DNA of 64,000 nucleotides. Source: Escherichia phage ECP2309. The notes beneath the pieces were generated by a model that was given only the letters and a program-made list of their open reading frames with translations, searched no databases and was not told where the DNA came from. Positions within the stretch are counted from its first letter, which is position 1. The number at the start of each line of letters is the position of its first letter. The stretch lies in sequence record PP464953.1. One strand, given 5' to 3'. The position numbers and the translations under genes were made by a program. Positions 13,768-18,008 of this stretch are shown piece by piece.

Positions 13768-14005
13768 CTGCACCCTCCTTTGGGAGCTCTAACTCTGGCA
13801 TAGCCATATACGCCACAACAGGGTTGTAATCAAAGTAGAAATGACCGTTAATTATCCCAGTTTTGTGGGCATAGTCACCAGATCCTGCAAGAACAATCTC
13901 GCAAACTCCGAAATCCACCTTGCCATTCTCATCTGCCATGGCTACAATATACTTTCCTAGAGGCATGTTTTTAACGCCGTCTACAAATGTCCACCCTTTG
14001 TTCAT
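13760..14005 (-). CDS. hypothetical protein
   Basis: track ORF 81 aa; SD AGGAGA. Confidence 0.55.
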   Translation of the reverse strand: MNKGWTFVDGVKNMPLGKYIVAMADENGKVDFGVCEIVLAGSGDYAHKTGIINGHFYFDYNPVVAYMAMPELELPKEGADV

Positions 14006-14025
14006 ACTTTATCTCCTGCACTTTC

Positions 14026-14358
14026 TTAAGGTAACCAGTAAACAATTTCGCCTTTCAGTTCCATGTCGTTACCGACATAGATTTTCCAGCCATCCATTTT
14101 AGCCACTGCAGGAGTGAAGTCCGTAGAACCACTAACCTCTTTCCAAGTCCCGTAGTCAGGTTGCCAGATATAGAATCCACCTTCCTTGTCCCATGCTCCA
14201 TATACCACATCGAGCAGGTTGCCCATTGCAACAATAGTAGGCCGTGGGAATAATACATCTACAGATGCGCCACAATTTCGGGTAGATTTTAAATTACAAT
14301 CCCAAAAGATGTCTGCCAGTGTGGCGGCGATAGCTTTACGTCTTTCTAATGTTACCAT
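14026..14358 (-). CDS. hypothetical protein
   Basis: track ORF 110 aa. Confidence 0.5.
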   Translation of the reverse strand: MVTLERRKAIAATLADIFWDCNLKSTRNCGASVDVLFPRPTIVAMGNLLDVVYGAWDKEGGFYIWQPDYGTWKEVSGSTDFTPAVAKMDGWKIYVGNDMELKGEIVYWLP

Positions 14359-14368
14359 GGTACGATAC

Positions 14369-14560
14369 TCACTTGTTGTTAAGAAGTTCTAAAACTTTCT
14401 GTTTTACTTTATCAAGGTCTGTTGATTCAAAAACTGTGCGATATCCCCAACTTTGCCCATAGGAATGACTGCAATCCCCGTAACACCATTGCTCAACTTG
14501 ATAGTATTCAAGGAATGGGTGCTGTCTAACTATGATGCCGTCTCGATTAAAAATTACCAT
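14369..14560 (-). CDS. hypothetical protein
   Basis: track ORF 63 aa. Confidence 0.45.
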   Translation of the reverse strand: MVIFNRDGIIVRQHPFLEYYQVEQWCYGDCSHSYGQSWGYRTVFESTDLDKVKQKVLELLNNK

Positions 14561-14623
14561 AATTTATCCCTCTCTGCTAGTCTATGTTTGTATTATATAC
14601 TGCAGTTTTCAGATGTCAACCTT

Positions 14624-14818
14624 TTACAGGTTACTCCAGTATAATCGGCATTTGCATTTTGGGCAATGAGGTTCTTTTATGTAGTAACCATCAGTCTTTG
14701 GAACACTTTTTGGTGCAGTTTTAAGATTGTACCGAGTAAAGCACCGGAAGCAGGTTACCTCTCCTACCTGTTGATCGTTTATCCACTCACCAGAGTAAAG
14801 CTCTTTCTTGTTTCTCAT
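14624..14818 (-). CDS. zinc-ribbon-like small protein
   Basis: track ORF trimmed to M20 with SD GGGAGA; CxxC...CxxC pattern (CFRC, CPKC). Confidence 0.5.
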   Translation of the reverse strand: MRNKKELYSGEWINDQQVGEVTCFRCFTRYNLKTAPKSVPKTDGYYIKEPHCPKCKCRLYWSNL

Positions 14819-14820
14819 AA

Positions 14821-15015
14821 TTATCTCCCTAGTCCTCTGCAATCTTCTACCAGAATCTCCAGCCAGAAAGCACACGGGAACACTTTGAGGATTGAATCTT
14901 TACTCGGCTCGGAAGTTCTTTTTCCATAGGGCAGGTAGAAATACCCTCCTGCAGATTCAAACATGGCTCCTTCTGTTGTATCTATCACAGCTAGAATTAG
15001 GATTTTAGTCTCCAT
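14821..15015 (-). CDS. hypothetical protein
   Basis: track ORF 64 aa; SD GGGGAG; weak call. Confidence 0.35.
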   Translation of the reverse strand: METKILILAVIDTTEGAMFESAGGYFYLPYGKRTSEPSKDSILKVFPCAFWLEILVEDCRGLGR

Positions 15016-15069
15016 AGTGCTCCCCTGTCTTAATCGTTGTGGTGACTATACCACCTTAAAATATAGCTG

Positions 15070-15609
15070 TCAACACCCTTTGTACTCCACCACGATAATA
15101 TCTATATCAAAAGTGGCAAGGTTAATAATGTCCTCTACATGTTCCCACTTCAAACCGCCTATGCCGCACCCGATCTTAGGGATGTAGAATGGTAAAATCG
15201 ACCCCTCAAATACTTCATTGACTCGCTCAAATCCTTTCAGTATTGAGAAATATTCAGCATTAGGTCCTGGATAGAACTGAGTATACAGATTTATTCCGTA
15301 GACAATACCTCTCGGAGATAAGTGCTCCCAACGGGAGAACGCGCCCAGTTTACTTAGGCAACCGTGCATAGTCATTTTATCAGCTTCCAATGCTTGAGGG
15401 AATTCACGAGCAATCTGCTTTGCTACACCCTTCCCCATTGTGTGGAAGCAGTTACAACCGTGGATCAGGTGACCAGCACCGCTCTTAAAAAGGGAGATTA
15501 AATCTCCCTCTACAGTATCAATAATCACGATATTCCAGCTCCTCTTCCACAATTTCAAAAAACTCAGTCCAGCACTGCGGCATATTGGAGTTACCGAAGT
15601 GGCTTTCAT
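15070..15609 (-). CDS. macro-domain (ADP-ribose-binding/processing) protein
   Basis: GDLIS...HLIHGCNCFHTMGKGVAKQI parallels the macro-domain GDIT...VNAAN..GGGV block; C-terminal IPKIGCGIGGL parallels the phosphate-binding loop; start uncertain (92-nt overlap if ATG at 15609; a GTG at about 15528 is the alternative). Confidence 0.55.
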   Translation of the reverse strand: MKATSVTPICRSAGLSFLKLWKRSWNIVIIDTVEGDLISLFKSGAGHLIHGCNCFHTMGKGVAKQIAREFPQALEADKMTMHGCLSKLGAFSRWEHLSPRGIVYGINLYTQFYPGPNAEYFSILKGFERVNEVFEGSILPFYIPKIGCGIGGLKWEHVEDIINLATFDIDIIVVEYKGC

Positions 15610-15943
15610 AGTAAAGGTTTTTACCGCTCGGAAGATAGAAATCTGTTACCTCATAAAATCCACAATCGTCGCACTCTCCCTCTTCAAACTTGGCCTTAAT
15701 CTTAATACCAAGGAAGGTGAAAAGTTTATGGATATCTTCGGTCTCGAACTCCCAACTAATGTTGTTTTCCGCATCGGTGTAAAACTGGATCAGTAGGCCA
15801 TCATCCATTTTTCCAAAATATTCTGTGAAGTAGCTCCCTTCCCAGAAGTCTTTGTGACAAATAATATCCATGCGCTTGCCCATAATAAAGGTGTGGGCGT
15901 TTCGTGCATCGTCACGAATCAGTTTTGGCATTTCATAAATCAT
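15518..15943 (-). CDS. hypothetical acidic protein
   Basis: track ORF 141 aa; SD GGAGA. Confidence 0.55.
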   Translation of the reverse strand: MIYEMPKLIRDDARNAHTFIMGKRMDIICHKDFWEGSYFTEYFGKMDDGLLIQFYTDAENNISWEFETEDIHKLFTFLGIKIKAKFEEGECDDCGFYEVTDFYLPSGKNLYYESHFGNSNMPQCWTEFFEIVEEELEYRDY

Positions 15944-16008
15944 CGTAGTTCTCCAGGATCAATAGGTGGTGCTACAGGAAGATCATAAAACATGGCGATC
16001 ACATTCTC

Positions 16009-16206
16009 TTACGCAGGAATTGCTTCAAACAGGCCGTTATCGATACCATCTTTCAAGTAAAGATTATACTCTATGTCGGTATCTGTGTAAAGGGCAGCAT
16101 CCAGCATTCTATCTGTGAGTCCATCCATTGGGTGGAGAAACCACCACCCACGCCAGTCAAAGTAACAACCTGGTGCATCTTCTCTCACACGGATTCGATA
16201 AATCAT
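16009..16206 (-). CDS. hypothetical protein
   Basis: track ORF 65 aa. Confidence 0.4.
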   Translation of the reverse strand: MIYRIRVREDAPGCYFDWRGWWFLHPMDGLTDRMLDAALYTDTDIEYNLYLKDGIDNGLFEAIPA

Positions 16207-16302
16207 GGGCAGTGGCCTCCTGTTAGTTACACATCCCAGTTTTCTTCGTTCATCACATCCTCCAGCTCTACAAGGTTATAATTGCACACCTTACAACCTG
16301 TG

Positions 16303-16719
16303 TCAACAGAAAACTTCAACAAATTCTTCCACAGTTTTAATGTCGTGGGAAAAAGGTTTACGGCTATAACGAGCAATAGCACTGTCAACCACCGCCCGGT
16401 ACTCCAAATCTTCAGAATATTTCATGAAGCATTGCAATGTCTCTGGACAGATAGCCAGATAGCTCCACCACCCCTCTTCAGATTGGTAGTCAAATCCCAT
16501 ACTCTCTAGCCACGAAGCGTATACACCTGCACCTTCCAGCCAGTGAGTATTTTCATCAAGGAACTTGTTCACAGTCATGTGAGCTTCTAAGCATTTATCC
16601 AACTCTTTTCCGTTAACCAGCCACGCACTGACAGTGGCGCATCCAAGGTCCACAGATTGGGTTGATAGATTGTATTGGTCATAGTTCTCAGGTTTAACAA
16701 TGATATCTTCTAATGTCAT
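16303..16719 (-). CDS. hypothetical protein
   Basis: track ORF 138 aa; SD AGAGAGGA. Confidence 0.6.
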   Translation of the reverse strand: MTLEDIIVKPENYDQYNLSTQSVDLGCATVSAWLVNGKELDKCLEAHMTVNKFLDENTHWLEGAGVYASWLESMGFDYQSEEGWWSYLAICPETLQCFMKYSEDLEYRAVVDSAIARYSRKPFSHDIKTVEEFVEVFC

Positions 16720-16734
16720 TTTTCAGTCCTCTCT

Positions 16735-16765
16735 ATACAAAAATGCCCCACCCTTTCGGGTAGGG
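16735..16765 (-). terminator. rho-independent terminator after the SSB-like gene
   Basis: stem CCCTACCC/GGGTGGGG with GAAA loop followed on minus strand by CATTTTTGTAT. Confidence 0.55.
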
Positions 16766-16781
16766 CTATGTTAACTAGATG

Positions 16782-18008
16782 TTAAAAAGGTATGTCATCA
16801 TCAAAGGCGTACTGTGCCGGATTCTGATCCATCGGGTCGTCTTCCGCATCATCTACAGGAGGAGCGTCTACAGTGTTTTGCTGTGGGGCGGCTTCCTGTT
16901 TGGCAGCTTGAGGCTCTTGATGGTCAGTGGCTCCAGCACCGTTCTTGATCCAATCATACAACGGTTCAGCAAGATTAGTCAAGACATCTTTTGCCTCTGC
17001 AGTAATTGCTACTGCAAAATCATCAACTTTCGTTTTCTTGTCAATACGGCGACAAGCGTTCAATACCGCATTACCAACACTGGCACCTACTTCATCTTCA
17101 GTTCGGTTAGTGGCTTGAGCGTACTCTTTCTTAAGCTCGATGGTGACCACGTGCAGTGTTTTAGCCACATCTAAAGGGCTGTCAATCTTAAACCCGCGAT
17201 CCAGGATGATCTGCAATGCATTGATACTGTGCCCTGTCTCTACACCGATGGGGTCGTAAGAGGATTTACGCTTACCACCAGAACCTTGTGTACCGTTCTC
17301 TGCTTTAGGCGGGTAGGCCTTGAAGCCGCTGATAATATTCCCGGTGTCTTTGTCAACAATAGCTGCAACACGACCGCCAACCACCAGGTCTTTAAGCTGC
17401 TCATCAGAGACAACCATAGCACCTTCACCAATCTTGTGATCATTGACAGTAACCACGTTGCCAACAATCTGAGTCACATCACCATAGATGCGTAAAACGT
17501 CCTGATTGGCATTCTGCTGAGGTTTCTGCTTCTGGCCTTGTGATTGTGTGCCTTGTTGCTGTTTTTGTTGCTGTGGAGCTGCTGGAGCCTCTCCTGCCCC
17601 CAACTTAACCATTTTAGCCAGTGAGCCTTTGTAGTAGGTCTTGCCGTTATGCTCGTTTGCCTTCAAAGGGATATTTACGATCCATCCTGGCGTTACGGTT
17701 TCCCACTTGTCGTCAATTTTAACAGAGACGGAGTCTTGATGACCAGGCTTAAGCAGCTTATCACCCATACTGATCCAAACTTCTTCACCACCTTGGAGCA
17801 GGTTATCAGAGGAGTCCAGTTCAGAAATCAGTAAAGAGATGGTGTGGCTGGATTCAATTTTCTTACCTTGCCACACAGTGGTTTTAATACCTGTTGTAGG
17901 ATCAGCACCTTTAATGGGCTTGATGCTGACACGTTTAATCATACCGTGAGCCAGTAAAACAGTTTCACGCGGATTCATCGGGTTGGCAAATTGTTGAATA
18001 ACGCTCAT
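16782..18008 (-). CDS. putative ssDNA-binding protein with SSB-type C-terminal tip
   Basis: ends ...AFDDDIPF, the E. coli SSB C-terminal motif, after a Q/P-rich acidic linker; track ORF trimmed to ATG (M50) with AAGGAG 7 nt upstream, start overlapping the upstream stop (TAATG). Confidence 0.65.
   Translation of the reverse strand: MSVIQQFANPMNPRETVLLAHGMIKRVSIKPIKGADPTTGIKTTVWQGKKIESSHTISLLISELDSSDNLLQGGEEVWISMGDKLLKPGHQDSVSVKIDDKWETVTPGWIVNIPLKANEHNGKTYYKGSLAKMVKLGAGEAPAAPQQQKQQQGTQSQGQKQKPQQNANQDVLRIYGDVTQIVGNVVTVNDHKIGEGAMVVSDEQLKDLVVGGRVAAIVDKDTGNIISGFKAYPPKAENGTQGSGGKRKSSYDPIGVETGHSINALQIILDRGFKIDSPLDVAKTLHVVTIELKKEYAQATNRTEDEVGASVGNAVLNACRRIDKKTKVDDFAVAITAEAKDVLTNLAEPLYDWIKNGAGATDHQEPQAAKQEAAPQQNTVDAPPVDDAEDDPMDQNPAQYAFDDDIPF

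Follow-up and report, generated by a model that had tools for sequence, protein, structure and literature searches.

A Predicted Macrodomain ADP-Ribosyl Hydrolase of Escherichia Phage ECP2309 as a Probable Tk.4-Type Counter to DarT2

A stretch of 64,000 nucleotides (nt) from Escherichia phage ECP2309 (PP464953.1), referred to here as the window, contains a minus-strand gene for a macrodomain protein. On sequence and alignment evidence the gene product is most likely a stand-alone, catalytically competent TARG1/ALC1-like macrodomain hydrolase acting on ADP-ribose (adenosine diphosphate ribose) linkages. It is probably a hydrolase of the T4 Tk.4/AdfM type that would be made early in infection and would remove the ADP-ribose added by DarT2 to thymidines of single-stranded phage DNA, using an Asn/Gln site like that of SCO6735 from S. 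coelicolor.

The macrodomain coding sequence (CDS) spans positions 15070–15528, stop codon included, and encodes 152 amino acids (aa) counting the GTG start at 15526–15528. This start was assigned on the basis of the GAGGAG sequence 10 nt before it, the match to GenBank protein WVS23684.1, and the "MII..." N-termini of all homologues. WVS23684.1 is the same gene in Escherichia phage ECP2303 (Vequintavirus, PP261279.1), where it is already named "macro domain protein"; the window and ECP2303 are 99.998% identical over 63.5 kb, circularly permuted by 459 nt. The longest open reading frame (ORF) begins at 15609 (15070–15609, 179 aa), and this start was rejected: the first 27 codons are spurious, running in a different frame over the last part of the upstream gene at 15518–15943 (minus strand). 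An earlier note on this DNA had assigned a macrodomain gene to 15070–15609; the gene is present, while its coordinates and strand needed correcting to 15070–15528 on the minus strand. The phage genome contains one macrodomain.

The macrodomain layout described in that note was recovered in the minus-strand translation of the CDS, with GDLIS at residues 8–12, HLIHGCNCFHTMGKGVAKQI at residues 20–39, and IPKIGCGIGGL at residues 116–126. Residues 22–135 matched the entire Pfam Macro profile (PF01661; positions 1–118 of 118) at 32 bits, against a gathering cut-off of 22. An AlphaFold2 model made with 68 homologues (predicted local distance difference test score [pLDDT] 96.8; predicted template modelling score 0.91) had the beta/alpha order expected of a macrodomain, and the three-layer alpha/beta/alpha macro fold was present in this model. 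The top Foldseek matches were TARG1, Poa1p, and DarG, with template modelling scores of up to 0.85. The family profile matched the same three proteins with expectation values (E) of 1e-15 to 2e-17; coronavirus macrodomains reached only about 5e-3. All four lines of evidence (Pfam, model, Foldseek, and profile searches) agree on the macro fold. Because the profile and Foldseek neighbours are TARG1, Poa1p, and DarG, far above the coronavirus macrodomains, the protein was placed in the TARG1/ALC1-like class; its nearest neighbours in sequence and structure are of this type, not of the MacroD, viral, or PARG types. The conserved Asn and the two Gly-rich loops fall on macrodomain ligand-contact positions, as the reading in the earlier note requires: N26, MGKGVA, and IGCGIGG align to the matching loops of DarG, TARG1, and SCO6735, and the second loop aligns with RIGCGLDR of TARG1, RIGCGLAGG of SCO6735, and PLGVGNGG of DarG.

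Conservation across the family is concentrated in the putative active site. Eleven residues (G24, N26, G34, A36, N80, Q84, G88, P117, I119, G120, and G122) were invariant in the 68 homologues, and H23, C27, Y82, and T83 were almost invariant. Among 142 further cluster representatives, N26 and Q84 were retained in 142/142, G34 in 141/142, and H23 in 139/142; N26 and Q84 were also invariant in 78 bacterial homologues. The invariance of this pair indicates a putative enzyme rather than a mere binder. Asn26 is equivalent to N22 of DarG, N23 of PhiKZ AdfM, and N27 of SCO6735. Gln84 stands in the column of the catalytic Lys of TARG1 (K84), DarG (K80), and PhiKZ AdfM (K78), and the window protein therefore lacks the classical catalytic Lys. 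In hidden Markov model (HMM) and hhalign alignments, neither this class-typical Lys (TARG1 K84, DarG K80) nor Asp125 of TARG1 was present, the position of the latter being occupied by Gly124.

The same Gln-for-Lys substitution occurs in SCO6735, an active member of the class, in which the column holds Gln85; His24 and Asn27 of SCO6735 align with His23 and Asn26 in the HMM alignment. SCO6735 cleaves DarT-made thymidine-ADP-ribose on DNA (PMC9411070). On DarT-modified DNA its Q85A variant lost all activity and its N27S variant nearly all, and the role of a Gln at the catalytic position, held by the conserved Asn, has been described for this enzyme (PMC9411070). If the proposed function is correct, a Gln-type site, SCO6735-like and unlike the Lys-type site of DarG, would be the common solution among phages.

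The closest characterised phage relative is Tk.4 of T4. The two proteins are 41% identical over their full length (residues 1–150 of the window protein and 1–152 of Tk.4; E 7e-43), PHROG 335 is the best match of both, and the motifs HGCNC, NLYTQ (N.YTQ), and IG.G (P.IG.G) are common to both. Each is a single-domain protein of approximately 150 aa with Gln at the catalytic position, and in each case the phage is a large lytic E. coli myovirus and the surrounding genes are small and non-structural. The phages differ in family (Straboviridae for T4 and Vequintavirinae for the window phage) and the genes differ in their neighbours, the ORF upstream of the window gene having no similarity to T4 vs. 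According to a 2025 preprint, tk.4 was the sole significant hit when T4 was screened by transposon insertion on a DarTG2 host; a clean tk.4 knockout sensitised T4 to DarTG2, and the gene was named adfM ("anti-DarT factor macrodomain"), its authors proposing enzymatic removal of ADP-ribose from DNA (bioRxiv 10.1101/2025.11.20.689424). The DarTG2 phenotype is known for T4 only. Through this full-length homologue, the counter-defence role suggested in the earlier note gains support from homology.

The name AdfM was also given, in a 2026 paper, to gp104 of PhiKZ, which removes DarT2 modifications from DNA (PMC13309987). PhiKZ gp104 is a distant relative of the window protein (24% identity; hhalign probability 97.9%) and is of the Lys type, as is DarG. 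Because gp104 is both distant and of the Lys type, while the window protein and Tk.4 are of the Gln type, the alignments separate two phage "AdfM" lineages, with the window gene in the T4 (Gln) lineage. The conserved Asn and the presumed substrate, thymidine-ADP-ribose on single-stranded DNA, are common to gp104 and the window protein; the phage nucleus is not involved in the present case.

Altogether, we infer that the window protein has the same substrate and role as Tk.4 and SCO6735, and that it is expressed early. Host RNA polymerase would probably transcribe the macrodomain gene together with the ORF upstream of it (orf141) soon after infection, from a sigma-70-type promoter. Once DarTG2 is triggered, DarT2 would place ADP-ribose on thymidines of single-stranded phage DNA and replication would be blocked. 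The two Gly-rich loops of the macrodomain would then hold the ADP-ribose while the enzyme hydrolyses the thymidine-ribose bond, with Asn26 and Gln84 arranged as in SCO6735 and not with the Lys of DarG and TARG1. Replication would proceed on the restored template. Reversal of host ADP-ribosylation, one of two activities offered in the earlier note, is thus the supported option, the probable substrate being DNA and not protein; for the other, destruction of a nucleotide signal, no specific support was found.

Since the macrodomain annotation and the assignment of this role to the T4 homologue were both on record before, the gain is incremental. Of some interest are the Gln-type site found throughout the phage clade and the Macro-NADAR fusions described below. 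If confirmed, the role would add the Vequintavirinae, which are broad-host-range E. coli phages of therapy interest, to the T-even and jumbo phages as users of macrodomain-based counter-defence against DarT2 (AdfM). The growth of a vequintavirus on DarTG2-carrying strains could then be predicted from whether it has kept or lost the gene.

Several points weigh against an anti-DarT2 function. The evidence from T4 is genetic and comes from a preprint, in which enzymatic removal is a proposal. Both the catalytic Lys of DarG, TARG1, and PhiKZ AdfM and the mobile loop of SCO6735 and BT1257 are absent from the window protein, so that the proposed chemistry is extrapolated. By structure, Poa1p and TARG1, whose substrates are different, are about equally near to the protein. 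The phage encodes a SIR2 protein of its own, and some homologues adjoin RNA ligase, Thg1, or nicotinamide adenine dinucleotide (NAD)-salvage genes. Bacterial relatives have no DarT neighbour, and the family is not DarT-specific by context. No literature was found on macrodomains of vequintaviruses or rV5, or on the sensitivity of vequintaviruses to DarTG2.

Among defence-system proteins, the only PADLOC match of the window protein was to the macrodomain part of DarG (51.8 bits; positions 4–141 of 329), and the NCBIfam DarG equivalog scored 47 bits against a cut-off of 250. The DarG of M. tuberculosis was the best single-sequence match in the PDB (E 3.8e-7). The DarG2 macrodomains of T. aquaticus and M. 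tuberculosis (PDB 5M3E, 5M3I) belong to the same class and are alike in the conserved Asn and the presumed substrate, whereas the catalytic Lys80 and a two-domain architecture are features of DarG, and Gln84 and a single domain are those of the window protein. The candidate identity of the protein as a DarG2 antitoxin was rejected: only the macrodomain part is present, without the C-terminal DarT-binding domain or an adjacent darT. None of the seven flanking ORFs tested gave a PADLOC match to any defence-system model, darT included, nor were there Pfam matches suggestive of an ADP-ribosyltransferase (ART).

The comparison with DarG bears on whether the protein acts without catalysis, by sequestering an ADP-ribose-derived immune signal (e.g., that of Thoeris) or by binding and blocking DarT2. 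Macrodomains bind ADP-ribose derivatives, the catalytically dead Q85A variant of SCO6735 still inhibits DarT in vitro, and one fusion relative weakly matched ThsA_Macro (26.5 bits). The window protein itself matched no ThsA_Macro model, however, and it lacks the domain with which DarG binds DarT, its match ending at position 141 of 329; with the catalytic Asn and Gln invariant in hundreds of relatives, a non-catalytic role is very improbable.

Stand-alone TARG1/ALC1-like proteins provide a second comparison. SCO6735 and BT1257 of Bacteroides (PDB 5E3B, 2FG1/2AFC) resemble the window protein in the Gln at the catalytic position held by Asn. Their mobile loop, which is five residues longer after the Gln (the "gmktg" insertion of SCO6735) and defines their subclass, is absent from the window protein, Lys89 of SCO6735 has no counterpart in it, and its identity to SCO6735 and BT1257 is only approximately 23–25%. 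Human TARG1 (OARD1), of the same class, was the best profile and Foldseek match, but in place of its Lys84/Asp125 dyad the window protein has Gln84 and Gly124. The yeast ADP-ribose-1''-phosphate (Appr1p) phosphatase Poa1p (PDB 6LFQ), also of this class, shares the IH.CNC motif that includes His23. Both Poa1p and TARG1 come from eukaryotes, and their substrates are metabolites or proteins.

A group of genes with possible bearing on ADP-ribose metabolism lies outside the window, approximately 84 kb from the macrodomain gene, at 96065–100316 of PP261279.1 (L006, 32066–36317). It comprises HTH/DUF6945, metallophosphoesterase, AAA_33 kinase, Rnl1-type RNA ligase, cREC "cyclic-phosphate processing", and SIR2-family genes, and looks like an RNA-repair and NAD-utilising module that could be a source of ADP-ribose products.

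The substrates could be ADP-ribose metabolites instead of DNA adducts; the protein would then be a Poa1p-like Appr1p phosphatase or an O-acetyl-ADP-ribose deacetylase that clears SIR2 or RNA-repair products. The kinase/phosphoesterase/Rnl1/cREC/SIR2 cassette in the phage's own genome and the proximity of some homologues to RNA ligases or NAD-salvage genes are in line with such a role. That cassette, however, is distant and belongs to a differently oriented module, and an obligate link is made less likely by T5, a phage with SIR2 but no macrodomain. The T4 tk.4 phenotype was specific to DarTG2, where the gene was the single significant hit, and the label "phosphatase" is an old motif-based transfer. 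Metabolite processing is accordingly rated quite unlikely.

The family is widespread. By tblastn, it was present in 2,809 of 50,697 phage records, and the match in T4-like phages was tk.4, adjoining vs. T5, which is DarTG2-sensitive according to the literature, lacked a homologue both in the tblastn search and when its unique 111.6 kb was searched with the profile, a weak correlate in favour of the anti-DarT2 reading. At 50% identity, 1,282 clusters matched with E ≤ 1e-30 and 10,864 with E ≤ 1e-10. In a scan of one genome per species, 352 loci carried the HG[CA]NC..M pattern, mostly as stand-alone proteins of approximately 150 aa on bacterial chromosomes; the carriers included Desulfobacter, Ruegeria, and Verrucomicrobiota. 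No conserved neighbour, DarT or other, was found in 78 of the bacterial loci, where the largest cluster (9/78) represented lineage synteny with housekeeping genes. With the family this large and mostly stand-alone in bacteria, an origin from a stand-alone hydrolase seems a better fit than one by capture of a DarG2 antitoxin.

Associations with NADAR and with a replicative helicase speak for the anti-DarT2 reading. In two phage contigs, the gene directly followed a DnaB-type helicase within a replication module. When 1.84 billion representatives were searched, Macro-NADAR fusions made up the three longest of the 150 best matches, all with the HGCNC, NAYTQ, and PLIGCG motifs and one also with DUF4326. 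Gln-type macrodomains fused to NADAR and/or DUF4326 were seen in the metagenomic proteins P0151, P0232, P0240, and P0228. On a phage contig (L011, 6001–7737), the order was Thg1-Macro-x-x-NADAR, close to Rnl2 and PTH2, with Macro and NADAR two genes apart. As the DarG1/AdfN counterpart, NADAR domains reverse the ADP-ribosylation of guanine in DNA (PMC11825919), and the Macro-NADAR modules may be dual de-ADP-ribosylation modules. No NADAR (AdfN-type) gene was found in the window phage genome by phmmer with one phage NADAR query, a weak negative. In Acinetobacter phage B09_Aci05 (H52) and Vibrio phages Cilsick (H64) and VPMCC14 (H75), the homologue adjoins nicotinamide phosphoribosyltransferase or ribose-phosphate pyrophosphokinase genes (NAD salvage).

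The size and context of the family leave room for other targets. The protein might reverse ADP-ribosylation of protein or RNA by host or phage ARTs other than DarT2, with DarT2 as one target of several or not the main one. TARG1 and SCO6735, the nearest class members, de-modify proteins too (PMC9411070); the family is very large, as the count at E ≤ 1e-30 shows; and stand-alone bacterial members without a DarT partner suggest a general repair role. Against this stand the absence of any annotated ART gene in the phage, the fusion to or proximity of NADAR, which acts on nucleic-acid bases, and the only genetic phenotype known for the family, which concerns DarTG2; this explanation is considered unlikely. 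It is a possible though doubtful extension that Tk.4-type macrodomains form a separate, large Gln-type clade of stand-alone nucleic-acid de-ADP-ribosylases, not captured DarG2, perhaps with broader specificity for other bases, RNA, or proteins. If true, the gene would be a broad-spectrum counter to ART-based immunity and not a DarT2-specific factor. Hydrolysis of DarT2-made thymidine adducts remains the probable function.

Around the macrodomain gene, a series of leftward genes, most of them small and of unknown function, extends over approximately 37 kb. Between 12500 and 19500 of the window (7 kb), a consensus scan, the only source of the promoter sites given here, found 28 sigma-70-like promoters, most of them on the minus strand, against 13.3 ± 4.0 in shuffled sequence. 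This enrichment around the gene makes early expression by the host polymerase plausible. Candidate promoters adjoining the gene are listed with the other features in Table 1; in addition, a perfect TTGACA-16-TATAAT promoter-like site occurs at 14619–14592 (minus strand).

The upstream gene, orf141, probably is co-transcribed and translationally coupled with the macrodomain gene, given the 11-nt overlap of its end with the macrodomain start. Homologues of orf141 occur only in vequintaviruses. Its product contains a conserved C..C pair (C91, C94), and its AlphaFold2 model was unusable (pLDDT 44). A role for orf141 as a partner of the macrodomain, analogous to the DarT-binding domain or to T4 Vs, was rejected, as there was no similarity to Vs, no Pfam or PADLOC match, and no PHROG match of known function.

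A natural 499-bp deletion was found in one vequintavirus assembly (ERR11560567_708; L016, 2501–2866) and corresponds to 15280–15778 of the window. The result is an in-frame fusion of approximately the first 52 codons of orf141 with the C-terminal half of the macrodomain, which has lost Asn26 and Gly-rich loop 1; a "QFY" microhomology common to both genes marks the junction. The macrodomain gene can therefore be lost, and such dispensability is typical of conditionally needed counter-defence genes. Other truncated versions occur (P0019, P0033, and P0051), the latter two on contigs of 32–135 kb.

Table 1. Coordinates, in the window, of the macrodomain gene, its predicted functional motifs, and adjacent features.
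Feature	Position	Strand	Basis and remarks
Macrodomain CDS	15070–15528	−	ORF; GenBank WVS23684.1; Pfam Macro, 32 bits; PHROG 335; T4 Tk.4, 41% identity; AlphaFold2 pLDDT 96.8
Shine-Dalgarno sequence GAGGAG	15538–15543	−	10 nt upstream of the GTG start; read from the sequence
His23, conserved Asn26, and Gly-rich loop 1 (residues 23–36, HGCNCFHTMGKGVA)	15421–15462	−	Translation and alignments
NLYTQ with Gln84 (residues 80–84)	15277–15291	−	Translation; HMM and hhalign alignments
Diphosphate-binding Gly-rich loop 2, PKIGCGIGG (residues 117–125)	15154–15180	−	Translation and alignments
Candidate sigma-70-like promoter TTTACA-17-TATAAT	16063–16091	−	11/12 matches; nearest upstream of the orf141-macrodomain pair; consensus scan
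Candidate sigma-70-like promoter TTGACA-17-TATAGT with extended TG	15045–15073	−	Overlaps the macrodomain stop; probably serves the gene at 14821–15015 (−); consensus scan
orf141	15518–15943	−	141 aa; PHROG 8157 (unknown function); last 11 nt overlap the macrodomain start

Two genes downstream of the macrodomain, a 64-aa protein (14624–14818, minus strand) matched Pfam Phage_zn_bind_2 with 80.5 bits. Farther upstream, a 408-aa protein with Gln- and Pro-rich low-complexity stretches (16782–18008, minus strand) matched PHROG 4477 (unknown function), and its gene is followed by a strong terminator-like hairpin at 16766–16745. Phages JEP1 (MT740314.1) and SYGMH1 (MW883061.1) matched 14000–17000 of the window in two pieces, with an "endonuclease VII" gene annotated there, which points to the insertion of a mobile endonuclease among these small genes. 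MG065635.1 and 15 other "Campylobacter phage" records of approximately 137 kb were 80–95% identical to this region at the DNA level, and their host label looks doubtful.
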